The notes: generated by a model not told the origin, from the sequence alone. DNA of 64,000 nucleotides from a virus (IMGVR_UViG_3300025617_000015:7197-71196), one strand, 5' to 3'. Counted from the first letter of the stretch, positions 1 through 38,241 are shown. A program made the numbers and translations.

Positions 1-668
1 TCGCAGAGTTCCACGCTGATAAGAAAGATCTTGCCGAAACTAAGGTTAAACTTGTTAGAGATAGCAAAGCCAAATTTGAAGCAATCAAAAAAGAATTTAT
101 TTCAAAATCAGCAACAGCAATTCAAGAAACAGTCTCGAAAGGACTGCGTAATGAAATTGGACAATTGAAAGAAGACATTGAGCAAGCTCGTCAGAATGAT
201 TTCGGACGCAGATTGTTTGAAAGCTTCGCTAGCGAATATGCTACTAGCTACCTTAATGAAAAAAGCGAAACATCAAAATTATTAAAAGTTGTTAAGCAAA
301 AACAAGCTGAATTAGAAGAAGCGGCAAATATTGTTGCAGAAACTAAGGAAGAGGTTAGTAGAAAAGATCAAGAAATTTCTGTAGTTAAAGAAAGCGCAAC
401 TCGTGCAATGAAGATGGCTGAATTGTTATCACCATTGTCGGGAGATAAGCGCGAAGTAATGACAGAACTTTTAGAATCTGTAAAAACAGAAAAACTAGAT
501 GCCGCATTCGACAAATACTTACCATCTGTAATGGATGGTGGAAAACCGGCGAAGAAGGCGTTAACTGAAGGCAAAGAAATAACAGGCAATAAACAATCAA
601 AGGCAATCGCCAGCGGTGAAAACAAAACCGCTGAGATATTTGACATCCGCAGGCTTGCGGGACTTTAA
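1..668 (+). CDS. prohead core scaffold protein (T4 gp22-like), 5'-truncated by the window edge
   Basis: The frame of ORF 165..668 is open back to position 3. The product is Glu/Lys-rich and coiled-coil-like, lies directly upstream of the major capsid gene, and ends IFDIRRLAGL. Confidence 0.8.
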   Translation, partial: AEFHADKKDLAETKVKLVRDSKAKFEAIKKEFISKSATAIQETVSKGLRNEIGQLKEDIEQARQNDFGRRLFESFASEYATSYLNEKSETSKLLKVVKQKQAELEEAANIVAETKEEVSRKDQEISVVKESATRAMKMAELLSPLSGDKREVMTELLESVKTEKLDAAFDKYLPSVMDGGKPAKKALTEGKEITGNKQSKAIASGENKTAEIFDIRRLAGL

Positions 669-681
669 TAGGAGAACTATA

Positions 682-1854
682 ATGTCACAATTACTCGAGT
701 CACGCTGGTCGGAAACGAAAGACGCTCTTTTAGAAGGGCTTCAGGGTAACAAACGCTCAGTTATGGACGTAACTCTAGAAAATACCCGCAAGTATTTGTC
801 AGAGAGCGCCACAGCAGGAGCAACTTCCGCCGGTAACGTAGCAACTTTAAATCGCGTCATCCTTCCAGTGATCAGACGTGTTATGCCAACAGTCATTGCA
901 AATGAACTTGTTGGTGTACAACCAATGTCAGGCCCAGTTGGGCAGATTCACACATTGCGTGTGCGTTATGCTGACGATTTCAGTTCCTCTTCGGGAACTG
1001 GTGCAACAGCTGGTGAAGAAGCACTTTCACCATTCAAGATTGCTGAAGGATATTCTGGCAACGACGACATCAAGGCAGCTTCAACAGCCGCACTTGAAGG
1101 CGCCGCTGGTAACAGAATGTCAATTCAAATCTTGAAGCAAACAGTCGAAGCGAAAACCAGAAAGCTATCAGCTCGCTGGACATTCGAAGCGGCTCAAGAT
1201 GCTCAAGCACAACAAGGCATTGACATTGAGGCAGAAATTATGGCTGCTCTTGCACAAGAGATTACAGCTGAAATTGACCAAGAAGTACTTACATCGTTAA
1301 GCACACTTGCTGGTACTGCCGCATTAACATACGACCAAGCCGCTGTATCAGGTACAGCTACCTTCGTTGGTGACGAACACGCCGCATTGGCAGTTCAGAT
1401 CAACAGAGTTAGCAACTTGATTGCTCAGCGTACACGTCGTGGCGCAGGTAACTACGCTGTTGTTTCGCCAACTGTATTAACACTTTTACAGTCTGCTACA
1501 ACTAGCGCATTTGCTCGCACTACAGAAGGTACTTTTGAAGCACCAACAAACACTAAGTTTGTAGGTACTCTTAACAGTGCTATGCGTGTATATGTAAACG
1601 GTTATGCTACATCTGATGATGTACTGATTGGTTACAAAGGTTCAAGTGAATCAGACGCACCTGCGTTCTATTGCCCATACATCCCGTTGATGTCAAGTGG
1701 CGTAGTACTTGATCCAAGCACATTCGAGCCAGTAGTTAGCTTCATGACACGTTATGGTTATGTTGAGTTAACAAACACTGCTTCGTCGCTTGGTAACGCG
1801 GCTGACTACTTAGGTAAAGTAGCTGTAACAAGCTCTAACCTACGTTTCGCGTAA
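682..1854 (+). CDS. gp23: major capsid protein (T4 gp23-like)
   Basis: gp23 motifs IRRVMPTVIANELVGVQPMSGPVGQIHTLR, VEAKTRKLSARWTFEAAQD, EITAEIDQE and FYCPYIPL..FMTRYG. Start moved to ATG 682 because of the AGGAG RBS at 670-674. Confidence 0.96.
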   Translation: MSQLLESRWSETKDALLEGLQGNKRSVMDVTLENTRKYLSESATAGATSAGNVATLNRVILPVIRRVMPTVIANELVGVQPMSGPVGQIHTLRVRYADDFSSSSGTGATAGEEALSPFKIAEGYSGNDDIKAASTAALEGAAGNRMSIQILKQTVEAKTRKLSARWTFEAAQDAQAQQGIDIEAEIMAALAQEITAEIDQEVLTSLSTLAGTAALTYDQAAVSGTATFVGDEHAALAVQINRVSNLIAQRTRRGAGNYAVVSPTVLTLLQSATTSAFARTTEGTFEAPTNTKFVGTLNSAMRVYVNGYATSDDVLIGYKGSSESDAPAFYCPYIPLMSSGVVLDPSTFEPVVSFMTRYGYVELTNTASSLGNAADYLGKVAVTSSNLRFA

Positions 1855-1872
1855 ACCAGTTACAACGTAACG

Positions 1873-1901
1873 AAAACAGGACCTTCGGGTCCTGTTTTTT
1901 T
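1873..1901 (+). terminator. rho-independent terminator with C(UUCG)G tetraloop after the capsid gene
   Basis: aaaacaggac-cttcgg-gtcctgttttttt: perfect stem, UUCG loop and U tract. Confidence 0.92.
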
Positions 1902-2000
1902 ATGACTAAATTTTAATGATTTTACGTATGACTTTTAGACACAACTATGTTTAAATAGTAATGTAGTAAATTTTTATTAACTTAATTTTAGGAGTACACT

Positions 2001-2072
2001 ATGTGGACAACACCGACAGCAACAGAGATGAGATTCGGATTCGAAGTAACACTTTATGTGATGAACCGATAG
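2001..2072 (+). CDS. pqqA: pyrroloquinoline quinone precursor peptide PqqA (not in the ORF track)
   Basis: Translates to MWTTPTATEMRFGFEVTLYVMNR* (23 aa), with the PqqA W..P...RFGFE-x3-Y signature. AGGAG RBS at 1990-1994, and a terminator on each side. Confidence 0.95.
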   Translation: MWTTPTATEMRFGFEVTLYVMNR

Positions 2073-2124
2073 TACCAGAAGTAGATATGAGCAAACTAAT
2101 AGAAACACTAGATTGCGAATAAAC

Positions 2125-2151
2125 AAAGCCCGTCACTGCGCGGGCTTTTTT
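2125..2151 (+). terminator. rho-independent terminator after pqqA
   Basis: aaagcccg-tcactgcg-cgggctttttt. Confidence 0.85.
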
Positions 2152-2158
2152 CTTATTT

Positions 2159-2166
2159 GATAAATA
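2159..2166 (+). promoter_or_regulatory. T4-type late promoter-like box (gaTAAATA)
   Basis: Resembles the T4 late -10 element TATAAATA and recurs upstream of many structural genes in this window. Confidence 0.7.
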
Positions 2167-2170
2167 CATA

Positions 2171-2253
2171 TGTCAGAAATCGTGCCGTGTACTACGGACT
2201 TATGCAGAATTGACCCACTGCGTATTACTTAGAACGTAACTTAGGAGAAACAA
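2171..2253 (+). ncRNA. candidate structured cis-regulatory leader (hairpins plus possible pseudoknot)
   Basis: Stems ccgtg/tacgg, tatgcag/ctgcgta and ttac/gtaa. Loop ttgac (2210-2214) is complementary to gtcag (2172-2176). Lies between the late promoter box and the RBS. Confidence 0.45.
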
Positions 2254-2691
2254 ATGGGACGTCCAGTTCAAAAAAGAAAAATTGGTGCAGGCGAAGCTCG
2301 CATCGAAGTAACAGCCGCTAGATTTAGCACAGGTGGTGTTGTTACCGGAAGTGATAGTGATAAACTATACATCGAAAGACAGCGTGGATCTAACAGATTC
2401 AAAATTAAACAATTAAACACAGATGCAGAAGAAGTATTAACACTAGTTGGTAAAGCTACACCTGCCGCTGGCGAGTTTTGTATTGTAGTACAAATTGATG
2501 ATACTACTGATGGAAACTTAGACGACTCTGCATTGTATTATGTTACAAAACTTCATAATAGAACAGTATCGTGTCAACCAGACGATGACGCTTCAAACAT
2601 GATCCACTTGCCTTATCAGTTAAACACTGAAGAAACAGATGAAGGCTTAGTAGGCGATGGATTTACTATTGCTAACATCGATGTACAGTAA
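2254..2691 (+). CDS. hypothetical virion-associated protein
   Basis: 145 aa, AGGAG RBS, first gene after a late promoter box in the structural region. Confidence 0.6.
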   Translation: MGRPVQKRKIGAGEARIEVTAARFSTGGVVTGSDSDKLYIERQRGSNRFKIKQLNTDAEEVLTLVGKATPAAGEFCIVVQIDDTTDGNLDDSALYYVTKLHNRTVSCQPDDDASNMIHLPYQLNTEETDEGLVGDGFTIANIDVQ

Positions 2692-2708
2692 TTAAAAGGT
2701 AGATAATC

Positions 2709-3677
2709 GTGAGTCAGTTTTTACAAGTAAACGGAGACTATGGTGTTAAAACGTCAGAAAGTGGTAAGATACTTTTTGATACAGGACCGGGTGTCGGTGA
2801 AGTAAGAGTAACAGGCAACTTAGTTGTTGAAGGTGATACTCTTACAGTTTCAGCTGAAAACTTAGATGTAAACGATAACGTTATTGTCCTTAACGCAGGA
2901 GAGACAGGGGCTGGTGTATCTTTGAGATATTCTGGTTTACAGATTGATAGGGGTTCATTAACCCCTGTCACTTTTGTGTTTGACGAAAGCACAGATGCTT
3001 TTCAAATTGCTGTAGGTTCACCTGAAGGAACGTTTAACTTTGCATCTAGTGCGCTAAAGTTAAGATCAATTTTAACTAATGCTGACACTGATGATGGAGA
3101 TTTAACTCTTATTGGGAGTGGAACTGGTGTTGTTAAGGTTTCAGGAACTCTTGCATACGAAAATCAAGTCACTGACGATGATGATGTTCCAAATAAAAAA
3201 TATGTTGATACTGCAATTAGAGACAATCCGACCTTCCAAATTCTAGATGATAATACTCGTGTTATTGTAACTGATAAAGATGTAGCTGGAAGTACAGATT
3301 ACATCTTTAATAATACCGGGTTTACAACCTTTGGACAAAGTGCTGTAAGTATTATTGTCGAAGGATCTTTAAATACTCAATTTTATTCGAACAGAGTTGA
3401 GATACAAGATTTAGAAATTGCCGGCAATCAAATTACCAACAATGATACGAATTCTAATGTTTTTATTAGAACACAAGGTACGGGACGACTACAAACTAAC
3501 TATGCGTTAGAACTAGAAGAAATTGCAGTAACACCAGCATTTGTAAGCGGTTCAACTATTTTACACGCTTGCACGCCGGGTATTGGTGGTTCGGGATTAG
3601 TGTTCGTAGGTTCTACAAACACCAATGACGAATTAGTAAGTAAAAACAAAGCAATACTTTTTAGTATGATATTTTAA
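2709..3677 (+). CDS. tail/baseplate structural protein with fibre-like beta repeats
   Basis: VTGNLVVEG..NLDVNDNVIVLN, GLQIDRG and PNKKYVD are motifs typical of fibre/baseplate proteins. Hydrophobic C-terminus. Confidence 0.65.
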   Translation: MSQFLQVNGDYGVKTSESGKILFDTGPGVGEVRVTGNLVVEGDTLTVSAENLDVNDNVIVLNAGETGAGVSLRYSGLQIDRGSLTPVTFVFDESTDAFQIAVGSPEGTFNFASSALKLRSILTNADTDDGDLTLIGSGTGVVKVSGTLAYENQVTDDDDVPNKKYVDTAIRDNPTFQILDDNTRVIVTDKDVAGSTDYIFNNTGFTTFGQSAVSIIVEGSLNTQFYSNRVEIQDLEIAGNQITNNDTNSNVFIRTQGTGRLQTNYALELEEIAVTPAFVSGSTILHACTPGIGGSGLVFVGSTNTNDELVSKNKAILFSMIF

Positions 3678-3687
3678 AGAGAAAGAC

Positions 3688-4068
3688 ATGATTAAAAGTA
3701 CACAATTAAACACAACATCAGCAGTTAATGTTCCGGAAAGAGTTTTTACAGCATCAACAAATGGAGATCCGATCGGCGGAGTAATTGTCGGTGTACAACA
3801 AGCAATAACAACTATGATTATTTGTAATACATCGGCTGTTGTTGTAACAGACGAAACATCTGGCGAAGCAGTTATTAATGTATACCTAGTTAAGTCAGGC
3901 GACACAGCTGATGCAAATAATCTTATTATCAGTAACTTAACCATACCTGCAGGTGAAACTGTATTCTTTAGCGATGAAAAAATTATTCTTGCTGAAGGTG
4001 ATCAAGTATGGATAGGTTGCGATGTTACCGGAGTTATTACTGCAACAGTAAGCAGTTTACCGGTTTAA
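3688..4068 (+). CDS. small virion beta-sandwich protein (paralog of 8353 and 22482)
   Basis: ITTMIICN...IPAGET..EKIILAEGDQV pattern shared with 8353..8685 and 22482..22802. Confidence 0.55.
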   Translation: MIKSTQLNTTSAVNVPERVFTASTNGDPIGGVIVGVQQAITTMIICNTSAVVVTDETSGEAVINVYLVKSGDTADANNLIISNLTIPAGETVFFSDEKIILAEGDQVWIGCDVTGVITATVSSLPV

Positions 4069-4077
4069 GGAGATAAC

Positions 4078-4773
4078 ATGAAGTTTCTAAAAGGACAAAA
4101 CTTATCAAAGTACAGTCCGGCAGATAATGCTCTTGCAATTAATCCGTACGGTAGAGCAGTTATGGATATTAACGGCGGACTATTGATTCCTAAAGGAACA
4201 ACTGCACAGCGTCCTTATATTACTGCTGACGTTAGACACGGCGCCGCCGGAGAAGTTGATACTAGCAAAATTGCAAACGGATATATGCGATTTAATACTG
4301 ATACTGAAGAGTTTGAAGGATACATTAACGGAAGATGGGAAACTATCCGAGCACCAGGTGCTTCGGCAGTAAGCATCGAAACATTTGGAGATAGTGACGG
4401 TACAGAAACTATTTTTGGACCGTTAGCAAATGTTCCAGCACATCAAAACAACTTGCTAGTATTTGTCGAAAACGTTTTTCAGATAGCTGGCGAAAACTTT
4501 GAAATGGTACAAAATCCAAGTTCGACAGACACTGGAGAAGAAGTACTAACTACAAACTTTATTGCTACGACAGAATATATTATAACTAATGTCGGAGACA
4601 CAGATTTTACAGCAATTGGAGCAAGCGCAAATACAGTAGGAACTGTGTTTACAGCAACAGGTGCCGGAGGCGGCACTACTGGTAGGGCAAGACCTACAGG
4701 ATATTATCTAGAGTTTTATACTTCAGTTCCATTTAGTAAATTTGTAACTGTATTATTTGGGTTTGCTAACTAA
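4078..4773 (+). CDS. tail/baseplate structural protein
   Basis: IPKGTTAQRP..GYMRFNTDTEEFEGY fibre motif and LLVFVENVFQ Ig-like baseplate motif. Confidence 0.65.
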   Translation: MKFLKGQNLSKYSPADNALAINPYGRAVMDINGGLLIPKGTTAQRPYITADVRHGAAGEVDTSKIANGYMRFNTDTEEFEGYINGRWETIRAPGASAVSIETFGDSDGTETIFGPLANVPAHQNNLLVFVENVFQIAGENFEMVQNPSSTDTGEEVLTTNFIATTEYIITNVGDTDFTAIGASANTVGTVFTATGAGGGTTGRARPTGYYLEFYTSVPFSKFVTVLFGFAN

Positions 4774-7163
4774 TGGCACAAGTAGGGCGCATCGGTGGAC
4801 ACTTATTAAAAGATCAACTTGTAAGAGATGGTATTGATCTTTCATTTAAGAATGAAATATATGATTCAACACCTATATTGTTTCTTGATGTAAGTGAAAA
4901 TAAAATTGGTATTAAAACCGATGCACCACTTTATGATTTAGATATTAGAACAGATATTAAATCTACAAATATTGAAGCAACTAGTATTGCTGAAATTGAT
5001 AATATCAGAATGATCGCTCCAAATACAATATCAACTAAAATTGGTCCGTTGTATCTTACGCCAGAACAAAATGGCGCATACTTCTTTATGAATAGAATGC
5101 AGAGCGATGACTTAGACTTTAATGATAATACAATATCTGGACTATCAAGTAATCAAAACATAGAATTTAGACCAGCCGGGACTGGAACAACTGAGCTTCA
5201 AAGTAATGTTAATGTATATGGTACACTAGGTGTCACTTCGGATATAACGCTTGACGGAAATGTTACACTTAAAGGAAACATTACATTAGGTGATGAGACA
5301 ACTGTAGATACTATTACAATTAAACCCCAGTTTGCTCAAAATTTAAATCCTGGCACTGATAATACATTAGATATAGGTTCACCGACAAATCGTTGGACTA
5401 CAGTATTCACTCCGGATCTAACACAAGTTGACAATGTTAATCCTGGAGCTGTTAAAGTGAGTGATCAAACATGGATTGATGGTATCGGAATGAAAATTCA
5501 GGGACTACAATCGGATGATGATATTATCTTAACAACAGTTGAAGTATTTGACGAAATTTCTAATCCTCAGGGTGCAGACAACGAAGACGAATTTGGATTA
5601 AAATCAACAGACAGTAATTCATTTATTGCAATTGCCGCACCGTCAGAAGATTCTACACTTAGTAATCAAGGTGTTGTATATCTTTATAATCATGATAATA
5701 ATTTGCAAAGAGCAATATCTCATCCTTCACCAGCAACTGGTGACAGGTTTGGTTCAGCTATTGGATTAGCTTCTGATGATTCTTACCTTGCAGTCGGTGC
5801 ATGGAATCAAGGGTTAGATGAAGGAGTTGTTTATATCTTTGACCCAGCAGATGGATCTTTGCAACATACTATTAGCAATCCAGACACTGATCCAACAACT
5901 CCTACTGATAATTTCGGTAACGAAGTAGTTGCTAAAACAGATTATCTTTATATTTCATCTCCTAGTGCCGACAATACTGTTACATATCCGCAAGCTGGTG
6001 CAGTATATGTTTATAATCCATCAACTGGATCTCAAGTACAATATATTTTAAATCCAGTTAGCTCTTTAGATTCTACATTCTTTGGTAGAGGAATTACTGC
6101 AAACAGTACACATTTGTTTATTGGTGCAAATTATAGAGTAGGTACAGATAAAGGAAGAATCTATGCTTACAACAAATCTACATGGACTGTAGATTACGAA
6201 ATTGCCGATCCAGTATCTGATAGTACTGGGCTTTTTAGTTTTAATAACTCTGCAAACGATACATATTTAATATCTCAACACGATACTGCTGATAGTATCT
6301 ACGTGTTTGATGCTAGCAACGGAAGCCTTTTAAGGACTATTACTGTAACTGGACAAGTATTATCAAACGGTGTTGGTGCAAAACTTGCTGGCAATGACTT
6401 TATTGTTGTTCCGACAACTAGCGATATTCAAATTTATAGAGCATCGACTGGTGTGTTAGTATCTACATATGATAGTACACAGGGAATTAACGGCGCCGAT
6501 TCAGTAACACCGATTGAAAGTGGTAGACGATTTATTAGATACAAATCTAATTTATACAATTTAGTAATTCTTAAAACTACTAAATTTACATTAGATATTG
6601 AAGACATTAATATCCGTGAAAATTATTTTGAAAATCAATTAAACACTCCAGTACAACTTAGAAATACAGGAATTGGCTACGTCAAATTTGAAGGAACGAA
6701 TGCAATAATAATTCCATACGGTCCAGATGCTGACAGGCCACCTAATCCAGAATTGGGTGATACAAGATGGAATAGTGATGAATCATATTTAGAATCATTT
6801 GCTGGAGAAGTTAATAACGTTTCATTAACATCGGCCACATTAACTGGAATTCCTGATCAAATTACATTTGTTACGGCAGCAACAAACAATCGAGGAACTG
6901 GAGTAGAATTACAAATTAATATTATTTCAGAAAGTATTGTATCAACAACAATTACTGAAGTTGGTGCCGGCTATCAACAAGGCGACACCTTAACAATATC
7001 AGGAAATCAGTTGTCAGGCGGGTCAACTCCAACTAATGATATTACTTTCACAGTAGGTGCGCAAGATAAAGACGGATATGTAATTGCCACTGGTGGCGGC
7101 GAAGAAGTAACTCAAGATATCATGGATGATTTAGGAGTTATTTACAGCCTTATACTTGCCTAA
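4773..7163 (+). CDS. tail fibre/structural protein with an inserted FG-GAP-like beta-propeller
   Basis: N-terminus paralogous to 7278. Central repeats FGxx..AIAAP..GVVYLY, FGSAI..AVGAW..GVVYIFD and FGNEV..GAVYVYN. IPYGPDADRP..GDTRWN motif near the C-terminus. Confidence 0.7.
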   Translation: MAQVGRIGGHLLKDQLVRDGIDLSFKNEIYDSTPILFLDVSENKIGIKTDAPLYDLDIRTDIKSTNIEATSIAEIDNIRMIAPNTISTKIGPLYLTPEQNGAYFFMNRMQSDDLDFNDNTISGLSSNQNIEFRPAGTGTTELQSNVNVYGTLGVTSDITLDGNVTLKGNITLGDETTVDTITIKPQFAQNLNPGTDNTLDIGSPTNRWTTVFTPDLTQVDNVNPGAVKVSDQTWIDGIGMKIQGLQSDDDIILTTVEVFDEISNPQGADNEDEFGLKSTDSNSFIAIAAPSEDSTLSNQGVVYLYNHDNNLQRAISHPSPATGDRFGSAIGLASDDSYLAVGAWNQGLDEGVVYIFDPADGSLQHTISNPDTDPTTPTDNFGNEVVAKTDYLYISSPSADNTVTYPQAGAVYVYNPSTGSQVQYILNPVSSLDSTFFGRGITANSTHLFIGANYRVGTDKGRIYAYNKSTWTVDYEIADPVSDSTGLFSFNNSANDTYLISQHDTADSIYVFDASNGSLLRTITVTGQVLSNGVGAKLAGNDFIVVPTTSDIQIYRASTGVLVSTYDSTQGINGADSVTPIESGRRFIRYKSNLYNLVILKTTKFTLDIEDINIRENYFENQLNTPVQLRNTGIGYVKFEGTNAIIIPYGPDADRPPNPELGDTRWNSDESYLESFAGEVNNVSLTSATLTGIPDQITFVTAATNNRGTGVELQINIISESIVSTTITEVGAGYQQGDTLTISGNQLSGGSTPTNDITFTVGAQDKDGYVIATGGGEEVTQDIMDDLGVIYSLILA

Positions 7164-7176
7164 ATCTTCTCTTTGG

Positions 7177-7183
7177 ATAAATA
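7177..7183 (+). promoter_or_regulatory. late promoter-like box ATAAATA
   Basis: ggATAAATAc in the intergenic gap upstream of 7278. Confidence 0.7.
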
Positions 7184-7189
7184 CATGTG

Positions 7190-7277
7190 TTAAGGAAGCC
7201 ATCCTTAATCTATTACTGTGGTCAACCCGCAACGTAAGGTGGTTGGAGGGACAGGATCCCCGGTTTAAGGAGAGCAC
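7190..7277 (+). ncRNA. candidate structured cis-regulatory leader (H-type pseudoknot-capable)
   Basis: Hairpin ttaagga/tccttaa. Stem ttac-tgtgg/ccgca-ac-gtaa whose loop tcaac is complementary to gttgg 7242-7246. Hairpin ggga/tccc before the RBS. GC-rich in an AT-rich context. Confidence 0.5.
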
Positions 7278-8348
7278 ATGGCACAGCTAGGACGAATATC
7301 CGGCCAGCTCTTAAAGGCAAATTTGGTACGTGACAACGTTCCATTATCCTTTAGGAACGAAGCTTCGGACCCAGATTTACTCTATTTAGATGTTTCTAAT
7401 GCTCGTATTGGTGTCAACAATTCATCTCCAACAACCGACCTAGATGTTACCGGAACAACAAGAACAACTACAGCAGTAGTAGATAATATACTAACTGTTG
7501 GTGATTTACATTTTACCGGAAACACGATTTCAGCAGATACACCGGAAATTAGATTTGCACCAAGTGGTTCAGATCCGGTTGTATACAATTCAAGATTACA
7601 AATAGACGATTTAGAAATTACCGGAAATGTAATTTCTACTCATGTTAGTAACTCTAACTTAGAGATTCGCCCAAGCGGCACTGGCGCTTTAGAAGTATTT
7701 TCAGATACTAATATTAACGGAAATTTATATGTTACGGGTAATATTAATGCAGACGGAAACTTAACATTAGGCGGCAACATCATTATCGGTGACGACAGTA
7801 CTGATACAATTGATTTGCAAGCTAGCATTGTTAGTAATCTTCTTCCAGAAGAAGATAATACATATTCGATAGGTACAGCAGAGTTACGCTGGTCAACAAT
7901 TCACGTAAACAATTTATATGCAGATACATTGAATCTTCCAACATTGAACATTGGAGATATAAGTGTATCTGATAATACTATTACAGCCGGAGCAGGATTA
8001 GATTTAGTAATTGATGGTTCCGGCGCAGGCGGCGTTCAGCTAGCAAACTTTAAATTTGTAGATAATACAATTACAAACGTAGTTAATAACGCCATTACAA
8101 TCATACAGCAAACAGGAACTGGTTATTTCAAGATTGATACTTCTAACGGGTTTGTTCCTCCAAGAGGTCCAGATGCTGATAGACCAACTGCGTATGCAGT
8201 TCCTGGTATGACACGTTATAACACTACTTCAAAAGCAATAGAAGTATGGGATGGCGCATCTTGGGCTTCACCGGCAGGTGCTTCAGGTGCTGTATCGGAA
8301 ATTACAGCAAATGATATTGCCGCAAGTTTCGCACTAACTTTAGGATAA
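7278..8348 (+). CDS. tail fibre/structural protein (paralog of 4773)
   Basis: MAQLGRISGQLLKANLVRD, LYLDVSNARIGVNNSSP and PPRGPDADRP..GMTRYN. AAGGAG RBS. Confidence 0.7.
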   Translation: MAQLGRISGQLLKANLVRDNVPLSFRNEASDPDLLYLDVSNARIGVNNSSPTTDLDVTGTTRTTTAVVDNILTVGDLHFTGNTISADTPEIRFAPSGSDPVVYNSRLQIDDLEITGNVISTHVSNSNLEIRPSGTGALEVFSDTNINGNLYVTGNINADGNLTLGGNIIIGDDSTDTIDLQASIVSNLLPEEDNTYSIGTAELRWSTIHVNNLYADTLNLPTLNIGDISVSDNTITAGAGLDLVIDGSGAGGVQLANFKFVDNTITNVVNNAITIIQQTGTGYFKIDTSNGFVPPRGPDADRPTAYAVPGMTRYNTTSKAIEVWDGASWASPAGASGAVSEITANDIAASFALTLG

Positions 8349-9068: not shown

Positions 9069-12000
9069 ATGGCAGAATTTAAGATAAGCACACTTAGGTA
9101 TACGTGGAAAGGCAACTGGGAAACAAGTACCGATTATATTAAAGACGATGTTGTAAGGTATGGCGGATCAAGTTGGATCTGTATTAGAAAACATACTTCT
9201 TCAGCATTTAATGAAGATTATACATATGTTCCACCTGGTGAAGATATTTCACAACCTGCATGGGAGAAGATGACAAATGGCTATGCATGGAAAGGCGAGT
9301 GGACGACTGCTACGTTGTTTGAGCCGGGCGATATTGTCGCACAAGGCGGAAATTTATATCTCTGTGTAGGATCTCATACTTCTGATACATTCTTTGATAC
9401 TGATATTGCAGAATGGATTGTTTACGCTTCTGCTAGTGAATGGACTTATAACTGGCAAAGTTCTACAAGATACGGTGTTGGTGATCTAGTTAAATGGGGA
9501 AGTAACATTTATCGTTGTGTCCAAGGTCATACTTCAAACGATACTGCTCTTGAAGCCGACATTGCTAATTGGTCTACATATCTTTTAGTAAAAGATTACG
9601 CAGGCGAGTGGGCAACTGGTGCTGTTTACAAAGTAAATGATATTGTTAAGTATAGTGGTACACTTTTAACTTGTATAACTGGACATAGTGCAGGATTGTA
9701 TATTAATATTGATAACTTTGCAGTCGAAATTCCTGGTAATAAAGTAAGAGGTGACTGGGTACATGAAGACACGTATTATGCAGTAGGTGACGTTGTCCAA
9801 CATGGCGGATACATTTATCAAGCAACACGAAATTCTATTAGTGCAAACCCGAGCGATTCGATTTATCAACCTACTGATCCTGCCTGGGCAATTGTACACA
9901 AAGGTACTAAATTAATCGGACAATGGTCACCGGACGGATCGTATAAAACTGGCGATGTAGTACAACGTGGTGGCTACACATATGTAGCACTGTTAGATAC
10001 TACCGATGACGGCAGTTCATTAGATTACTTAGATGCTACTAACTGGGAAATTCTTGTACCAACACAGTCTTGGAAATCAAACTGGACTGTTGGCGTTAGG
10101 TATTCATTAGGCGATGTTGTAACTTACAGAGGCACAGCATATAAATGTATTATTGAACACATTGCAATAGAAGAAAGTTTTCCTGGAGATAACGGCAACG
10201 GCTTTGATTACTTCGAAGTTTTACTAGAAGGTACTGATAAGTCGGGATTAGTTGGACCGGGTGATTTATTAACATTTGGACTTTCTAGATCGTTTGCAGG
10301 AGACGGGTCAACATTCGGAGAAACAAATATACCGATCGGAACCGAAGAAACTTTACTACAAGTAGATGCTGGAGATACATTTAAATATTCTACATACGGC
10401 GCATCAGCAAGATTTATCTATGTAAATTCCAATAGTGGAGTTGACAGTGCTGTTGACAACAGAGGCATAGATCCGTTTAAACCATACAAGTCGATTAGAT
10501 TTGCATGCGATCAAGTAGAAAATGACGGATTTGAAGGTAACACTACAATACAAGTAGCAACAGGTGTATACGAAGAAATTTTACCAATACGTATTCCGGC
10601 TAATGTTGCAGTTCAAGGTGACGAATTAAGAAGCACAACAATTAAACCAAGGCCTGCAATAACCGCACTAGAAGGTGATATTCAATATCGACCAACAGCA
10701 TTGAGTTATTTGCGTACAGTTATTAACAAAGTTATTTTAAACCAAGCGCACACTAGACTTGAAGGAAACACTCAACCACAAGTATTTCTCGTTGATGAAG
10801 TTATTACTGGTCAAGATCCATTTGGAAATGATGTTATTGAAAATATTCCAGTATTTGGCGATCAGACTGGAGTAGATATTGTAAATGACGCACTTGCCGA
10901 TTATACACAATACATTAACTTCTATGTAGGAGGGTCTGGGCTAGCACCGACAGTATCTGGAACTAATAATTCTTCAACTGACGAGTTCATTGTTGGAGCA
11001 GGAAGAGCAATTATAGCAAATAAAGATTTTCTAGCAGAAGAATATGTTGCATATATTAGACTAAACTATCCTGATTACGAACTAGATGTTGAGATTGCAA
11101 AAGATCATATTGTTAGATTGACAGGTGCATTAGACTATGATTTAAAGAGAACTGGCAATTATCAAACTCTTAGAGAAGCAGAATTTTATACCAACTCAGT
11201 TAACGGCAGTTCTTTAAAAGATATGTTCTATTTAAGAAATTCAACAGGTTTAAGAAACTGTACATTAACAGGCTTAACTGGAACATTAAACCCGTCGAAC
11301 GTTTTTGAAGAATATCAAAGACCGACCGGCGGCGCATATTGTTCACTTGATCCGGGCTGGGGCCCAGACGATCAGCGAACATGGATTCTTACACGATCAC
11401 CTTATATTCAAAACGTATCTACGTTTGGTGAGAATTGTGTTGGACAAAAAATTGATGGATCGTTACACGCAGGCGGCAACAAATCATTCACATCAAACGA
11501 CTTTACACAATTGATTAGTGATGGCATTGGTGCATGGGTATTAAATAACGGTAGAGCTGAACTTGTATCAGTGTTTACATATTATGCTCAGGTTGGCTAC
11601 CTTGCTGAAAGCGGAGGAATCATCCGAGGAGCAAACGGAAACTGCTCATACGGATTTATCGGCGCACTAGCAGACGGAACAGATCCATCTGAAACTCCGA
11701 TCACTGCAACAGTTAATACAAGATTAGAACAAGCTAGTATAGACAATGCATTTGCTGGTGAAGTAAATGACGAAATCCTAGCACTTGAATTTAAAAATGC
11801 TGGTCAAGATTATACTTCAGCGAACTACACATTTATTGGTTCAGGAACACAAGTAGATGTTGTACAAGAAGATTTTCGATATGACGCAATTTTTGATCCT
11901 AGAATTGTTACTGGCGCAGGCTCGCAAACTGCTGGCGGTGGCGGGTACACATTAATCGGAAACCAAGCACAAACAGGGGATACAACAAGTATCACACTTG

Positions 12001-14615
12001 CGGCAAACGATGAAAACGCAGAATCAAACTTATTAGGTTTAAGAATCTTTATTACATCAGGTGAAGGCACTGGACAGTACGGTTATGTGACTGCATATAA
12101 TCCAACAACAAAAGTACTAGATGTTGCTAAAGAATCAGACGATACACCAGGTTGGGATCATGTTATTCCTGGATACGAAATTAGAGGGTTATTAACAACA
12201 TCCTCAACTTATAGATTTGAACCAAGAGTAATTGTTTCAGATCCGCCTTATGATGCTTTTGACACAAATTTAGACGCCGGAACAGTTTATACTGATATTA
12301 CATTCGGCGAAACATCAGGACAGTTTAATAATATTACAGGCTCTGAAGGTTCTGGAGATGTTGTTCGAGATGATGGCCTAGTACCAGTTGCCGCTACTTG
12401 GGATATTACTAAAGACGGTAGCATATATGCAGTTTCAATAAGAAACCCAGGAGCAGGATATAACGTCGGTGACGAAGTTGTAATTAGTGGTGAAGATCTT
12501 GGAGGAGAAACTCCGGCTAATGATCTAACAATTACTGTTACTGAAACATCAGACGATAGTACTGATATTATTACAGCATTTACATCAAGCGGAAATGCAG
12601 GTTCAGGAAGATATGTAGCAGTATCGAATATTGGGACTACTGTTAATTACTCACCCGATGGGATAACATGGTCAACTGGAGCATTACCGAGCAGTGATGA
12701 TTGGATTGCTGTAACTGCCGGTAGAGGTGAAGGATCAGACGAACATCGATTTGTTACAGTTAAAGCAAATAGTAATATTGTTGCATGGTCTAGAAACGGT
12801 AATGATTGGTTTCAAAGAACTGTGCCGGTGAGTGCAAATTGGTCAAGCATAACATTTGGCAAAGGCATTTATGTTGCTGTTGCTAAAGACGGAAATTATG
12901 CTATGATTAGTGATAATGGAATTAATTGGACTATGCAAAACATTCCAGATAGTCCGTTTGATGATTCAACTGTTAACGTCTGGGAAGATGTTACTTTTGG
13001 TAAAGATAAATTTGTAGCAGTCTCGTCAAGCAATAACTTGGCAGCCGTCGGCGAATACGTAGGTGGTACACTAACATGGACTACATTTATTATGGATGCC
13101 ACAAGTGATTCGTCACTGAAAGACTGGAACAGTGTAGCATACGCTAATAATAGATTTGTTGCAATTGAACCAACAGGCAGAATTGCATATAGTTATGACG
13201 GCGAAGGATGGTTCGGAGCTGATTTACCATCACCGGACGGCAGTTCATTCCTTAACTGGAATAGAATCAGATCAGGCAATGGATTATTCCTAGCAACAGC
13301 TGATGCAGGAGATTTGCCAGCAATTGGAGCTGATCCTATTGTTGACAGTGCAATCAATTATGTTTATCAGTCACAAGATGGTATCAAATGGGTACAGAAA
13401 ATAGTACCTACTGAATCAAAATACGATGCATTAGTATGCGGGTTCCCTGCATTAGACAGTAACGATCCTGATAATAAAACCGGACAATGGATTGTGCTTT
13501 CACAGAATATTACAACAGTAGCCCAAAGAATTCTAACTGGTGCAACTGCATTTATGAGAGCAAAGATCGGAGCAGGACAAATATCACAATTGAATATTTT
13601 CGATCCTGGAAGTGGTTACAGAACAAATCCAACTTACACTATTGTTGATCCGAATAATACAGGCGATGCAGTGTTTGATACAAGCAGAATTGCTGATAGA
13701 GTTTTAGGTCAGCCAAGCTGGCTTAACAGAGGTGTTGGTTATAAAACATCAACAACTAGCGTATCAATTCTAGGAGACGGTTTTGCCGATGTTGTTCCGG
13801 TAGGTAAATTCTTAAACGTGTCAAACATGCCACAGTTAATTGGTCCGGGCGCACAGCTAAGACTAGCTAATAATGATACACTGTATACTGTAGTTGTTGT
13901 TGAAAGAGAAAGTACTGAAAACGATGGTTCGTTTACGTTTAACTTCCGTGTATCGCCTGAATTAGAAATTGAAGACGATGTGTTCAACGGACAAGTCGTT
14001 ACAATCAACACTCGATACAGTCAGGTACGTATCTCAGGACATGACTTCCTAGATATCGGAACAGGCGGATTTAGAGATACTAACTATCCTAACTTGTATA
14101 CAGGGAATTATTTAAGATATCCAGAAAACGAAGTTATTGAAAAAAATGGCGGGCGAGTGTTCTACACAAGTACTGACCAATCTGGTAACTTCCGATGCGG
14201 AGAACTGTTCAGTGTTGAACAGGCAACAGGAATTGTGACTATTAGTGCTGACTTCTTTGACTTGGGTGGTTTGACAGAACTTGCCCTTGGAGGTATTAGA
14301 GTAGGCGGCACAGGAACGGTTATTAGAGAATTTTCAACAGACCCTCTGTTTATTGAAGATTCAAATAATATTATTCCAACACAACGTGCTATTAGAAATT
14401 ATCTGAGTAACAGATTAAACATTGGTGGCGCTGACTTGCTTACAGCAAGTTTTATTGCTGGTACGGTTAAAGTAGGACCGAATCAGATTGCTAACACAGC
14501 AGGGTTAGGGGTTAACTTTGCTAAAGTTGCTGACTTTAAAGGACCACTGGCAGGGGTTAAAGGTGCTATGCTAGCACAAAATTACTTCTTCAGATCTTTT
14601 AGAGACAGGGATTGA
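9069..14615 (+). CDS. giant virion structural/fibre protein with CBM5/12-like W/Y repeats, a beta-helix region and Asp-box propeller
   Basis: About 7 N-terminal repeats W-x4-Y-x2-(G)DVV-x-YGG-x2-Y-x-C. Asp-box motifs SPDGITW, SRNGNDW, SDNGINW, SYDGEGW and SQDGIKW. C-terminal RYSQVRISGHDFLDIGTG shared with 14658. Confidence 0.75.
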   Translation: MAEFKISTLRYTWKGNWETSTDYIKDDVVRYGGSSWICIRKHTSSAFNEDYTYVPPGEDISQPAWEKMTNGYAWKGEWTTATLFEPGDIVAQGGNLYLCVGSHTSDTFFDTDIAEWIVYASASEWTYNWQSSTRYGVGDLVKWGSNIYRCVQGHTSNDTALEADIANWSTYLLVKDYAGEWATGAVYKVNDIVKYSGTLLTCITGHSAGLYINIDNFAVEIPGNKVRGDWVHEDTYYAVGDVVQHGGYIYQATRNSISANPSDSIYQPTDPAWAIVHKGTKLIGQWSPDGSYKTGDVVQRGGYTYVALLDTTDDGSSLDYLDATNWEILVPTQSWKSNWTVGVRYSLGDVVTYRGTAYKCIIEHIAIEESFPGDNGNGFDYFEVLLEGTDKSGLVGPGDLLTFGLSRSFAGDGSTFGETNIPIGTEETLLQVDAGDTFKYSTYGASARFIYVNSNSGVDSAVDNRGIDPFKPYKSIRFACDQVENDGFEGNTTIQVATGVYEEILPIRIPANVAVQGDELRSTTIKPRPAITALEGDIQYRPTALSYLRTVINKVILNQAHTRLEGNTQPQVFLVDEVITGQDPFGNDVIENIPVFGDQTGVDIVNDALADYTQYINFYVGGSGLAPTVSGTNNSSTDEFIVGAGRAIIANKDFLAEEYVAYIRLNYPDYELDVEIAKDHIVRLTGALDYDLKRTGNYQTLREAEFYTNSVNGSSLKDMFYLRNSTGLRNCTLTGLTGTLNPSNVFEEYQRPTGGAYCSLDPGWGPDDQRTWILTRSPYIQNVSTFGENCVGQKIDGSLHAGGNKSFTSNDFTQLISDGIGAWVLNNGRAELVSVFTYYAQVGYLAESGGIIRGANGNCSYGFIGALADGTDPSETPITATVNTRLEQASIDNAFAGEVNDEILALEFKNAGQDYTSANYTFIGSGTQVDVVQEDFRYDAIFDPRIVTGAGSQTAGGGGYTLIGNQAQTGDTTSITLAANDENAESNLLGLRIFITSGEGTGQYGYVTAYNPTTKVLDVAKESDDTPGWDHVIPGYEIRGLLTTSSTYRFEPRVIVSDPPYDAFDTNLDAGTVYTDITFGETSGQFNNITGSEGSGDVVRDDGLVPVAATWDITKDGSIYAVSIRNPGAGYNVGDEVVISGEDLGGETPANDLTITVTETSDDSTDIITAFTSSGNAGSGRYVAVSNIGTTVNYSPDGITWSTGALPSSDDWIAVTAGRGEGSDEHRFVTVKANSNIVAWSRNGNDWFQRTVPVSANWSSITFGKGIYVAVAKDGNYAMISDNGINWTMQNIPDSPFDDSTVNVWEDVTFGKDKFVAVSSSNNLAAVGEYVGGTLTWTTFIMDATSDSSLKDWNSVAYANNRFVAIEPTGRIAYSYDGEGWFGADLPSPDGSSFLNWNRIRSGNGLFLATADAGDLPAIGADPIVDSAINYVYQSQDGIKWVQKIVPTESKYDALVCGFPALDSNDPDNKTGQWIVLSQNITTVAQRILTGATAFMRAKIGAGQISQLNIFDPGSGYRTNPTYTIVDPNNTGDAVFDTSRIADRVLGQPSWLNRGVGYKTSTTSVSILGDGFADVVPVGKFLNVSNMPQLIGPGAQLRLANNDTLYTVVVVERESTENDGSFTFNFRVSPELEIEDDVFNGQVVTINTRYSQVRISGHDFLDIGTGGFRDTNYPNLYTGNYLRYPENEVIEKNGGRVFYTSTDQSGNFRCGELFSVEQATGIVTISADFFDLGGLTELALGGIRVGGTGTVIREFSTDPLFIEDSNNIIPTQRAIRNYLSNRLNIGGADLLTASFIAGTVKVGPNQIANTAGLGVNFAKVADFKGPLAGVKGAMLAQNYFFRSFRDRD

Positions 14616-14624
14616 AAATTAAAA

Positions 14625-14630
14625 TAAATA
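14625..14630 (+). promoter_or_regulatory. late promoter-like box TAAATA
   Basis: aaTAAATAc upstream of the GGAG RBS of 14658. Confidence 0.6.
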
Positions 14631-14657
14631 CATTATATTGCTAGCTTGGAGTAGAGA

Positions 14658-17600
14658 ATGGCAGAGTTTAAACTAGGTAGAATCAAATTTGTGTGGAAGG
14701 GTAATTGGACCCAATCCACTACATACTATAAAGATGACGTTGTGCAATTTGGAGGTAAAACTTTTATTTGTGCTGTAGGACATACAGCTGATACAAGTTT
14801 TTATACAGACCTCGATATTGTTCCTTCTAAATGGAATCAAATGACCGATGGTCAGGCGTGGGAAGGCAATTGGACAATTTCAACACTTTATAAAGTGAAT
14901 GACGTTGTTAAATATGGCGGCACACTTTATATTTGTAACGAGTCACATACATCAGCTGGTACAACCACATTAGGACTTGAAGATGATCAAGGCAAATGGG
15001 ATACCTATGTAGAAGGATTTGACTGGAAAAGTAACTGGACAATTGCAACACGTTATAAAGTGAATGACGTTGTTAAGTATGGTGGACAAACATATGTTGC
15101 AAACACCGGACACACATCAGCTGGCACAACTGCTGATGGACTAGAACTTGATCAAGCCAAATGGGACTACTTAAATAAAGGCACTGAATATAAAGGTGCA
15201 TGGGCAACTGCAACACGTTATAAAGTAAACGATGTTATTAAGTATGGTCCAAACCTTTATGTTTCAAACACTGCACATACTTCAGATGCTACAGATTTTG
15301 CTACTGATATTGCTAACTGGGATCAGTTTGTTGAAGGCTTTGCTTATGAAAATACATGGAGCAACGCAACAACTTATCAACCAGGCGATGTTGTTAAGTA
15401 TGGTGGTAATCATTATGTCTCAACCTCAATTCATGCAGGTACTACTCCTACCGCAGTTGGGCAAAGTGATTGGTCTCTATTTTCTAGAAACTTTGATTAT
15501 ATCGGCAACTGGGCAATTGACACAGGTTATAAAATTGGCGAAGTTGTTACTGTTGGATCATATACATATGTTGCAACTGCCGATTCACCAACTACAGCAA
15601 TTACTGTTACAGCATCAGACAACGGTTCATCTCAAATAACCGCCGCAGATACTACTGGAATGGTTGCCGGAATGGCAATTCAATTTAGTGGAACATCTTT
15701 TGGTAATATTAATGTAGGTTATACATACTTTGTTAAAACTGTTGATAGTTCAACTACATTTACTATTAGTACAACACAAGGAGGATCAACGTTTAGCGTA
15801 GATACTGATACAGGATCTATGACAGCAGATGTCTCAGCTCATCCTACAAACACTAATTACTTTAGCACTTTAAACGAAGGCTTTAGAAATAGAGGTGACT
15901 GGAACGATGATGTTGAGTATGAAATTGGTGACGTTGTAAAATTTGGCGACAACACATATGTATCAATTGCTAAACACCGTTCGGAAGGCGACGACGGATC
16001 TACAGTAGGCGAACTAGGCGGCGGTGGCGACAACAGTCGTCCAGATCAAGATGCTTCAGGTGCTTATTGGAATCAGTTAATGACTGGCAGCGAAACCAGT
16101 ATTTTAACTACATCTGGAGATTTAGTTTATTACGGCGGTGCAGGACCAACAAGACTTCCGATTGGAGTTGAAGGCCAAGTATTGATGGCGGGTCAAAACT
16201 ATCCTGAGTGGACATCACTCGGAGGCAGCGATCATGTTTATTATGTAGCGCCACACGGTAGAGACGAAGCGTTTCCAGTATTTGGTAAAACAGTTGATAA
16301 GCCATTTAAAACAATTAGATATGCATGTGAAGCAGTTTTAAAAGGACCATTAAATCCAAATGCAAATAAACTTTTAGAATTAAACCGTGCGTTTATCCAG
16401 AGAGAAACAACTGAATGGATCGATTATCAAGTAGCTAATGCTGGCGGCTCTGGCATTTGGGATAGTTTTGATTACGATGAAAGTAAATGCGAAAGAGATA
16501 CAGGATTTATTGTTGACGCACTGATACATGACATTGGACACGGCGGAAACGTTAGATCCCGAGGCGCGGCTAACACCTATGTTGGAGGCTTGTTTGAAGA
16601 TGAACAAGAATCATATGGACGTTTAGCACAAGAGTCTGCACAGTCAGTTGAGGCTTTTGCTTATACATTGAGTGTTATACAAAATGTCTTAAATCAAACA
16701 GACCCGAGTGTTAACTATCAGGTAACAAACGGCGATAACTCAACTGCAATTGTTACTCAATACAAAGATGCAACAATTAATGCTGAAAGCGGAACATACG
16801 ATAAATGTGCTGACTTGATGACAATCATTAGTAATGCAGTTGAAGATGGAGATACAACACGTATTCCAGCTAGAGTACAACCGAATAACTTGATTATTAT
16901 CAAAACTGGTGCGTATGAAGAAGTACTTCCGATTATTGTACCAGAAAATACTTGTGTAATTGGCGACGAAGTACGCTCAACTAAAGTAAATGCCGCTGGA
17001 TCTAAAACAGATAAAACAGATGCTAAGTTTAGTATTGATACTTTTGCTCACTTAGAAGATGTAATTTCAGATGTTATTGCTGGAGCTACAGTTACACCTA
17101 GTGCTAGTAATGCTGAAACGCAAGACATAGCTGTTCCGTTTGCTGATACTGTTGAACAAACAGATATTACACGACTCATCCGAGGCTTAACCCATGATAT
17201 GGACTTTAGATTAGGAACAAAACATAAAGGTAATATTCCTGATCCGACTGGCTATAATACATCTTACTTAGTAGGTTATGGCGATGCAAGAAAGCTAGTT
17301 AAAGAAAACAAAGATTTCTTTATTAAAGAAACAACAGCGTATATTACTGCAAATTATCCAAATCTCAAGTACAGCAAAACTAAATGCGAGCAAGATGTTG
17401 GTTACATTGTAGATGCACTAATTTACGATCTAACATACGGCGGAAAAGACCAAACTATTAAAGCAGGACTTGCATACTTTGACGGACGCAACGGTGCAAA
17501 TTCAATTAGTGCCGCAGAATTAGTTGCAACTACAGATGCATATACTAATTTAAAGAGTATGATTTCAACAGTTGCTCAAGCAAATGCATGGACGGCATTA

Positions 17601-26430: not shown

Positions 26431-27048
26431 ATGATGTACAATATGTTTCCAACAGGTGTATACAAACAGCAAGCAAATTTAACCGATCATCATAAAAATG
26501 AGATGAGAGATTATTTGCTTGCTGAATTTTCTCAGTTACCTAAAAGTAACCATTCTTTAGAAGATGGCGGGAAAACTTTATTTGCAAGTAATGCTGGACT
26601 TCATCTATCTCCAATATTTAAGCCTTTAGTTAGTGAAATTATATTTCACATAGAAGAGTATTGGGACACTATGCTTTTTACTGAAGCAACAGATCCAAAG
26701 ATACTAGATATGTGGGCAAACTTGCACGATAAAGATGATAGCACAACACTACACTCTCATTCAAATATTATAACTGTAGGGTGTTATTATTTAAATTTTC
26801 CAATTAATTCAGGAAATTTAATATTTAAAAACCCTAACGAATACACATATCACTACTACCCTTTTGATTACGAAGGAAAGGAAAAATATATGTGGAATGA
26901 AATTGATATTGTTGAAAACGATATTGTATTATTTCCGGGTCATTTAAAACATAAAACTGGTCCAAATATGTCTAATGATACTAGGATCAGTATTAATTTT
27001 AATGTTGTTATGGTTGATCGACAGCCTGAAATATACTTCGAACAGTAG
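26431..27048 (+). CDS. 2OG-Fe(II) oxygenase (TIGR02466-like)
   Basis: WAN..HSH..GCYYL..LFPGHLKH..N..RISINFN. Confidence 0.85.
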   Translation: MMYNMFPTGVYKQQANLTDHHKNEMRDYLLAEFSQLPKSNHSLEDGGKTLFASNAGLHLSPIFKPLVSEIIFHIEEYWDTMLFTEATDPKILDMWANLHDKDDSTTLHSHSNIITVGCYYLNFPINSGNLIFKNPNEYTYHYYPFDYEGKEKYMWNEIDIVENDIVLFPGHLKHKTGPNMSNDTRISINFNVVMVDRQPEIYFEQ

Positions 27049-27060
27049 GTAAGAAAAAAA

Positions 27061-33899: not shown

Positions 33900-33900
33900 C

Positions 33901-35150: not shown

Positions 35151-35316
35151 AATAATCATTTCCTTCAACCTCTTCAGTTTCAGGTCCTAGTTTTACGCCT
35201 TTACTGGCGCCTGCTTTTTTGATTTCTACAATACGCTCTTCAGTATTTTTGATGAACATTGCATAATCAAATGCTTTATAGTAAGCGTCAAATTCTTTAT
35301 TATCAACTGTCCACAT
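35137..35316 (-). CDS. 59-aa hypothetical protein (not in the ORF track)
   Basis: MWTVDNKEFDAYYKAFDYAMFIKNTEERIVEIKKAGASKGVKLGPETEEVEGNDYFNDR*. AGGAG RBS and an exact TATAAATA upstream on the minus strand. Confidence 0.7.
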   Translation of the reverse strand: MWTVDNKEFDAYYKAFDYAMFIKNTEERIVEIKKAGASKGVKLGPETEEVEGNDYFNDR

Positions 35317-35340
35317 CGGGTAACTCCTATTTTATAACAG

Positions 35341-35348
35341 TATTTATA
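35341..35348 (-). promoter_or_regulatory. exact T4 late promoter consensus TATAAATA
   Basis: tatttata on the plus strand, upstream of the 35137..35316 gene. Confidence 0.75.
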
Positions 35349-35355
35349 CTTTTAG

Positions 35356-38235: not shown

Positions 38236-38241
38236 CAATGA

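Follow-up and report, generated by a model that had tools for sequence, protein, structure and literature searches.

Why a large phage should carry, immediately behind its major capsid gene, a free-standing gene of 23 codons for PqqA, the peptide from which the cofactor PQQ is made, is the question raised by the stretch of DNA analysed here (64,000 nucleotides, hereafter the window; positions 7197-71196 in a linear IMG/VR record that is 71,196 bases long and has 38.3% G+C). We read it as a phage-borne auxiliary gene that would supply PqqA to the PQQ pathway of the host, and place the probability of this reading at roughly 0.7. The locus comprised the following features.

616..1854 (+), Gp23-type major capsid protein gene (PF07068, E 2.9e-100)
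1866..1904 (+), terminator hairpin of the capsid gene, with a GC stem, a TTCG loop and a T-run (-20.8 kcal/mol, z -5.3)
1913..1929 (+), upstream box TTAATGATTTTACGTAT, one half of a palindrome found 5' of host pqqA copies
1950..1966 (+), conserved box TTTAAATAGTAATGTAG, about 40 nt before the ATG, a putative promoter -10 region
1990-1994 (+), Shine-Dalgarno sequence AGGAG, read directly, 6 bases 5' of the ATG
2001..2072 (+), pqqA, 23 codons, with Glu16 and Tyr20 as the residues that become PQQ
2003..2122 (+), 39-codon frame overlapping pqqA, its 3' end being the micro-ORF
2087..2122 (+), micro-ORF of 11 codons, MSKLIETLDCE and a stop, which is also the 3' end of the overlapping frame
2125..2148 (+), intrinsic terminator closing the cassette, 9 pairs (5 GC) and a T-run, from the consensus scan
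2160..2167 (+), ATAAATAC, T4-late-promoter-like box of the next gene
2183..2256 (+), freshwater-2-like RNA leader (RF02980) of the next gene, outside the cassette
2254..2691 (+), next gene, 145 aa, no family

The encoded peptide (MWTTPTATEMRFGFEVTLYVMNR) matched Pfam PF08042 over the whole profile (1-19 of 19) with 36.4 bits (cut-off 21.1, E 5e-9) and NCBIfam TIGR02107, an equivalog model, with 36.0 bits (cut-off 20). The first-pass annotation had named this 23-aa ORF PqqA and had proposed a profile check, and both curated models bore the name out. The PqqA model gave a single match, of 33.6 bits, in a six-frame search of the 71,196-base record. PqqA is usually recognised by E-x3-Y in a peptide of about 20-40 residues; here the motif was E16-V-T-L-Y20 in a peptide of 23 residues. 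The gene is an intact pqqA in a viral genome, and its product is, by sequence, a genuine PqqA of the Methylophilaceae type. Residue 18 was Leu in the window and Met in 130/130 host copies among the matches listed, and the last residue was Arg, unlike in the Methylophilaceae chromosomal copies. The ribosome-binding site that had been claimed for the ORF corresponds to the AGGAG at 1990-1994, and AGGAG or AAGGAG stood at the equivalent site in the alignment of related pqqA cassettes. The gene had also been said to escape the ORF track, and length-based ORF calling indeed chose a 56-codon antisense ORF (1999..2169, minus strand) over pqqA. GenBank shows the same pattern: the entries of Melnitz and MW202481 have a short hypothetical CDS on the opposite strand over pqqA.

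The gene directly upstream of the cassette, at 616..1854, is that of the major capsid protein, as had been claimed. The closest phage relatives of this capsid protein were those of jumbo myoviruses with genomes of 285-469 kb, at 64-70% identity, namely Vibrio phage 2.275.O, Sinorhizobium phage Phosso, the PA5oct group, XaC1, and the GAP32/CBB group; the hosts of the 17 best named-host relatives were Vibrio, Pseudomonas, Sinorhizobium, Xanthomonas, Erwinia, Serratia, Cronobacter, and Pectobacterium. The record encoded a T4-type portal, prohead protease, capsid, sheath, tube, and terminase, as well as very long tail fibres with CBM5/12 modules and gp32-like, UvsX-like, and UvsY-like proteins. 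The set by which jumbo myoviruses are recognised (Gp23 capsid, Gp20 portal, T4-type terminase, sheath, and tube) was found complete. From this gene content, the record is a fragment of a T4-like jumbo myovirus with a genome estimated at more than 200 kb, and CheckV gave a completeness of 20% for the 71-kb record. Megablast of window positions 1-8000 against the phage records returned no match. Related capsids were abundant in IMG/VR, with at least 599 stretches, the best 80 at 79-93% identity, on contigs of up to 210 kb at 60% estimated completeness. The five sequencing runs that held at least half of the sampled words of the stretch were marine or seawater metagenomes; two of these were RNA libraries, and a third RNA library held a quarter of the words. 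No integrase family was matched by 63 window ORFs searched against PHROGs or by 69 ORFs searched against Pfam, and the tRNA search found no gene.

The cassette that follows the capsid gene spans about 250 bp and is complete in itself, consisting of an upstream box, leader, ribosome site, pqqA, micro-ORF, and terminator. A terminator on either side had been claimed, and hairpins were found at 1866-1904 and within 2116-2159, the fold of the latter having -17.1 kcal/mol (z -4.0). A hairpin with a T-run occupied the same position as the upstream one in four relatives (L257, L262, L267, and L266), and GC hairpins also stood 3' of the micro-ORF in L035, L093, and L339. The consensus terminator scan found the downstream hairpin only, possibly because the A-run flanking the hairpin at 1866-1904 pairs with its T-run.

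Host pqqA copies were preceded by a 17-base palindrome, CTAATGAWWWTCATTAG. The window box was the best match to it in the upstream region, with five mismatches to the 17-base consensus and the left half intact. This half also stood before pqqA in P19250A, MEP301, MEP402, Melnitz, L266, and L298, and the right half was retained in Venkman and in a spring podovirus. Among the matches listed, the palindrome (≤4 mismatches) occurred upstream in 70/124 host and 42/117 viral regions, compared with 2/124 and 0/117 in downstream controls and 1/124 and 6/117 in shuffled controls. In three host genomes, five of the 11 sites with ≤1 mismatch stood before pqqA copies, and the other five such sites in the two small host genomes lay within ORFs. 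We take the palindrome to resemble a Fur box; this candidate was dropped because nothing linked the palindrome to iron genes. The second box, TTTAAATAGTAATGTAG, was aligned in the window, L035, L266, L112, L093, and L031, and similarity to Methylophilaceae genome DNA began at 1954-1962. A scan for sigma-70 promoters over 1500-2800 gave 0 sites against 3.6 expected. The flanks of the cassette are of host type, and they also occur in unrelated viral contigs.

The micro-ORF was examined together with the frame that overlaps pqqA. A motif of the MSKLIETLDCE type was found 3' of pqqA in 4/120 viral loci listed (L035, L093, L063, and L117) and in a 132-kb relative (L339), compared with 0/126 host loci among those listed. 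A hand count between L117 and L063 gave five synonymous changes and no non-synonymous change in the micro-ORF, and its frame was open back through the entire pqqA in the window, L035, L063, and L117. The recurrence of the motif, the synonymous-only changes, and the open frame therefore make a small second product in this sub-lineage a likely prediction. An overlapping frame as a general feature of pqqA was rejected: the +2 frame was open across pqqA in 5/116 viral and 5/118 host loci. Behind the capsid gene in L257, L262, and L267 lies a ~93-codon ORF, whose C-terminal part (EEIDKINHLISTLD) was similar to the tail after pqqA at 2078-2122 (EVDMSKLIETLD). A remnant of that ORF was considered for 2078-2122 and discarded, and the segment was counted in the cassette, because pqqA has the same tail in other contigs and in the 132-kb relative, where it sits at another location.

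The slot behind the capsid gene was variable, and the location of pqqA differed among related phages. Five of 80 related capsid contigs carried pqqA: it lay 3' of the capsid gene on the same strand in L266 and on the opposite strand in L298 and L299, and about 60 kb from the capsid gene in the contigs of L257 and L268. In L257, L262, and L267, the slot was occupied by the ORF of about 93 codons, and L266 had, 3' of pqqA, both a glutamine riboswitch and a manA RNA. The interval from the capsid terminator to the leader of the next gene is therefore a hotspot for small inserts. With the present contig included, 6/81 clade contigs carried pqqA; most of the contigs were short fragments, and this fraction therefore does not settle how frequent pqqA is in the clade. 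The nearest viral copy, in L117, shared 65/69 bases with the window. Coordinates of the RNA elements were 4487-4536 in L266 for the riboswitch (58 bits, gathering score 35), and 4816-5020 in L266 and 4461-4661 in L298 for the manA RNA (58.6 and 49.8 bits, gathering score 55.2).

Beyond the slot, the box ATAAATAC before the next gene, which we take to resemble the T4 late promoter consensus, was kept in relatives. Six of its eight copies in the window stood directly upstream of same-strand gene starts, and the total of eight was not above chance (5.9 expected). The match to freshwater-2 (RF02980) in the window reached 46.5 bits and so fell short of the gathering score (49.9); the aligned element exceeded that score in three relatives (L297, 71.3; L257, 64.8; L267, 51.7 bits), and compensatory changes were found at 6/10 predicted pairs. 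We read the window leader as a diverged member of freshwater-2. This orphan Rfam motif is thereby placed in the 5' leader of a jumbo-phage gene beside the capsid gene; a literature search on the motif found no paper. Homologues of the 145-aa gene followed the capsid gene in 13/80 related loci. Contigs from the RNA libraries matched exactly 1012-1866 (capsid) and 2182-2955 (next gene); none spanned 1867-2181, where the DNA run also breaks. The contig starts at 2182 and 2192 would fit, if weakly, a transcript start at this point. The DNA run had no cover at 1871-1937 or 2072-2138 and low depth over pqqA.

Relatives of the peptide were sought in phages and bacteria. Tblastn against 50,697 phage records returned 12 records, nine of them from Methylophilales or Methylophilaceae phages (P19250A, Venkman, MEP301, MEP401/402, and four Melnitz isolates). 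Identity was 87% for P19250A, 83% for Venkman, MEP301, and an uncultured spring podovirus, 74% for MEP401 and MEP402, and 73% for the Melnitz isolates. Two contigs labelled Acinetobacter phage MD-2021a matched at 55% (E 0.7); the one opened was read as bacterial because it carries ppk and pqqB-E. In all six phage loci opened (P19250A, L003; Venkman, L004; MEP301, L005; MEP402, L006; Melnitz, L007; the spring podovirus MW202481, L008), an intact pqqA of 23-24 codons was present, and in none was it annotated on its strand.

A degenerate DNA pattern for M-R-F-G-F-E-V-T-x-Y matched at least 120 viral stretches and at least 126 stretches in species genomes. Among the 130 genome matches listed, 82 had at least 19/23 residues identical to the window peptide, and their names were Methylophilaceae in 70, uninformative in 10, and those of one MAG titled Acidovorax in two. 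The 13 listed at 17-18/23 comprised six Methylophilaceae-named and seven uninformative entries, and the 35 at ≤16/23 comprised 16 Methylophaga-named, six Methylococcales-named, one Rhodocyclaceae, and 12 uninformative ones; all Methylophaga- and Methylococcales-named copies among the matches listed were thus at ≤16/23. Because this genome sample had been selected by the motif, the question was repeated without it on 401 genomes evenly drawn from the class. A match was present in 73, the best in Methylopumilus at 87%, the second at 77%, and the others at ≤70%; four of the matching genomes other than the best (G381, G393, G226, and G124) are unpublished. The nearest-homologue search that had been suggested for finding the host thus led to Methylophilaceae as the closest named copies, both among the listed matches and in the 401-genome sample.

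The remainder of the PQQ pathway was sought in the phage and in its presumed hosts. In the Pfam search, the 69 ORFs of the 71-kb record gave no match to the PqqB-E, radical-SAM, or PQQ-repeat families, and the pqqE and pqqC models gave no match in the 71-kb record or the 132-kb relative. The same two models exceeded their cut-offs in a Methylopumilus genome, a 1.2-Mb MAG of the same family (titled Nitrosomonadales), and a Methylobacillus genome. No PQQ_2 domain indicative of methanol dehydrogenase was found in five large relatives (742 kb in total). The proposal that the phage supplies only the substrate of PQQ synthesis, with its call to look for pqqB-E and xoxF, agreed with these results, as neither pqqB-E nor methanol dehydrogenase was found in the 71-kb record, which represents about 20% of the genome; the other ~80% could encode further pqq functions or, like the Lake Baikal viruses, a dehydrogenase. 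In the 71-kb record pqqA does not share an operon with pqqBCDE; such linkage is not a strict criterion, and all three pqqA copies of the Methylopumilus genome lay more than 100 kb from pqqC/E. The host genomes had 3, 3, 7, and 9 dispersed copies. For Methylophilaceae, a published study gives 3-12 pqqA copies per genome and a single pqqBCDE (PMC4109929).

In 104 distinct viral pqqA sequences among those listed, the 12 codons left free by the pattern had a pN/pS of 0.26 (pS 0.50, pN 0.13), and all codons together 0.14, the ratio being biased downwards since the sample was selected by the motif. Read from these codon changes, the viral copies are under purifying selection. As expected of an auxiliary metabolic gene, the window pqqA is a homologue of a host gene (87% to the Methylopumilus peptide) flanked by capsid and tail genes.

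An established route, in which the two residues are cross-linked, leads from Glu and Tyr of PqqA via PqqE and PqqD to PQQ (refs 50 and 51 as cited in PMC7678222). The phage pqqA would be translated during infection and its peptide handed to PqqD, PqqE, PqqB, and PqqC of the host, whose enzymes would cross-link Glu16 and Tyr20 and excise both as PQQ, so that one peptide would be spent for each cofactor molecule. The phage would in this way make the sole consumed part of the pathway and leave the remainder to the single-copy enzymes of the host. The additional precursor would keep up or raise PQQ for the periplasmic methanol dehydrogenase (XoxF/MxaF), and sustained activity of this enzyme would yield energy for phage production. 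We infer the translation, the processing by host enzymes, the timing, the benefit to the phage, and the host from the DNA and its relatives. PQQ is a cofactor that catalysis does not use up, so this scheme assumes that a short infection creates a demand for more.

The host is probably a marine member of Methylophilaceae, an assignment made from pqqA. The earlier guess of a Methylophilaceae host, for example OM43, gained from the nearest homologues and the marine origin of the samples while still being conjectural. Matches to the first 20 kb of the window were present in 282/361 Methylophilaceae genomes; the best 150 of 520 such matches all fell at 1954-2075, with up to 85% identity, and the other 370 were weaker. 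Among the best 150, the only host-like DNA in the first 20 kb was therefore pqqA with its leader, and none of them was spacer-like. A host link independent of pqqA was found neither by the tRNA search nor by comparing the first 20 kb with the 361 genomes. OM43-type Methylophilaceae are among the smallest free-living cells, and in our judgement a phage of about 350 kb in such cells would be unusual. A literature search on jumbo phages of OM43 returned only unrelated work, and one on pqqA in OM43 returned work on bacteria only.

We hold only tentatively, and with some doubt, a more extended reading in which OM43-type Methylophilaceae are the hosts of a clade of marine jumbo phages with genomes of about 350 kb and pqqA is a travelling module with the host half-site and the micro-ORF. 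Such a module would combine the half-site of a host control box, a leader, pqqA, a phage-only micro-ORF of 11-12 codons (or an overlapping second frame), and a terminator, and would be shared among unrelated methylotroph phages. If this is true, phage pqqA would stand under host-type regulation and be accompanied by a second, undescribed small product.

The auxiliary role could also hold in a different host, another PQQ-making marine bacterium to whose phage the cassette came by exchange between phages. This seems unlikely to us, although several observations favour it: the nearest capsid relatives with a named host come from phages of Vibrio, Pseudomonas, Sinorhizobium, Xanthomonas, and enterobacteria; the halogenase and 2OG-oxygenase genes of the phage are closest to those of cyanophages and pelagiphages, not Melnitz; the best 150 of 520 matches in the first 20 kb contain no Methylophilaceae-like DNA besides pqqA; and the cassette flanks are common to unrelated viral contigs. 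The peptide and leader are nevertheless of the Methylophilaceae type, the upstream box is the one that precedes host copies, and the clade shows at least three placements of pqqA, all of that type. PqqD recognises the leader of the PqqA peptide, so a foreign peptide should serve less well in such a host.

Two further explanations deny that the peptide feeds the pathway. The phage peptide might act as a decoy that occupies PqqD/PqqE of the host or comes to a dead end and so lowers PQQ synthesis, which we consider very improbable. Nothing specific speaks for it beyond Leu18, set against Met in all 130 host copies listed, and the phage-only micro-ORF and overlapping frame that accompany pqqA, whereas all positions weighted by the PqqA models are retained, including Glu16 and Tyr20, and most viral copies among the matches listed are identical or nearly identical to host peptides. 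Hosts multiply pqqA themselves (3-9 copies; compare the pqqA part of PMC4109929), and to starve a host of energy brings the phage no obvious gain. That the gene is a neutral passenger or recombination scar, either chance host DNA not yet lost or homology kept for integration, is scarcely credible. A slot that is a hotspot holding the ~93-codon ORF, the glutamine riboswitch, or the manA RNA in relatives, and the presence of pqqA in just 6/81 clade contigs, would suit such a passenger. Against this stand the purifying selection with its many synonymous changes outside the pattern, a best identity of the window pqqA to any sampled host gene of 55/69 bases, which is far from an attachment core, and the lack of an integrase family among the ORFs searched. 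Moreover, pqqA was present in 9/9 returned records of Methylophilales/Methylophilaceae phages, which differ in size and in the neighbourhood of the gene. Provision of PqqA to the host pathway is the reading that we carry forward.

That pqqA had been noted in phages before was remarked in the first-pass annotation, and viral pqqA was indeed published in 2020: the passages on this gene in Coutinho et al. (2020; PMC7678222) report PqqA in a Lake Baikal T4-like virus, population VP_266, with a predicted Methylophilaceae host. As in VP_266, pqqA in the window belongs to an uncultured T4-like virus of about 35-38% G+C, is read as an auxiliary gene for methanol oxidation, and has its host deduced from homology to Methylophilaceae. 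According to the same passages, the Baikal viruses are from freshwater and carry methanol dehydrogenase, whereas the window phage is marine, has no such gene in its 71 kb, and has a capsid that is closest, among phages, to those of jumbo phages of 285-469 kb. The passages also describe P19250A as being without these genes; it holds an intact, unannotated pqqA.

Compared with the dispersed ("orphan") pqqA copies of Methylophilaceae, the window gene agrees in 19-20/23 residues, in standing apart from pqqBCDE, in a similar leader, and in the same upstream box; it differs in having the left half-palindrome only, Leu18, a C-terminal Arg, the micro-ORF, and a viral context. With the pqqA of cultured OM43/LD28 phages (Venkman, MEP301, MEP401/402, Melnitz, and P19250A) it shares an intact frame (23-24 codons there), 73-87% identity, a ribosome site of its own, and the TTAATGATT box or its mirror half. 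These phages have genomes of 35-142 kb with pqqA among replication, recombination, and other non-capsid genes, whereas the window copy lies behind a jumbo-phage capsid gene. In the main texts of the papers on Melnitz and MEP401/402, pqqA goes unmentioned. Because viral pqqA is published and common, the present instance adds detail and not a new principle; the details are the variable slot, the retained host box, the phage-only micro-ORF, the marine jumbo-phage context, and the adjacent freshwater-2 leader.

Phage pqqA would point to the supply of PQQ precursor as a bottleneck in the energy metabolism of methylotrophs, on which hosts, with their multiple pqqA copies, and their phages act alike. 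The gene was unannotated in every opened record of a cultured OM43/LD28 phage. Since gene callers and annotations miss pqqA, it could be used as a simple marker to link uncultured phages, giants included, with marine methanol-oxidising hosts.

Several other parts of the window are worth recording. Two giant tail-fibre proteins of 1848 and 2602 aa, with several CBM5/12 (chitin-binding type) modules, are encoded at 9069-22466 (+) and are followed by three paralogous glycine-rich fibre proteins of 304-305 aa. Four tryptophan-halogenase-like genes, one of them truncated, and about eight 2OG-Fe(II)-oxygenase-like genes lie at 26431-38238, between the tail-fibre and baseplate genes; their closest phage homologues were in marine cyanophages and pelagiphage HTVC008M. 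The ATAAATAC box precedes many structural genes. Among the tail and neck genes, 41513-42235 (-) encodes a 241-aa protein with a sigma-70 region 4 domain, which may be a late sigma-like factor of the phage. An APS-kinase-like P-loop protein at 62534-63570 (-) is split into two ORFs (142 and 136 aa) that flank the gene of a DUF2061 membrane protein, and a sulfotransferase-family gene lies at 51819-52421 (+), which together hint at sulfation chemistry. The 148-aa protein encoded at 51373-51816 (+) matched both a TnsA-like endonuclease N-terminal domain and a PHROG annotated as 'head closure'.
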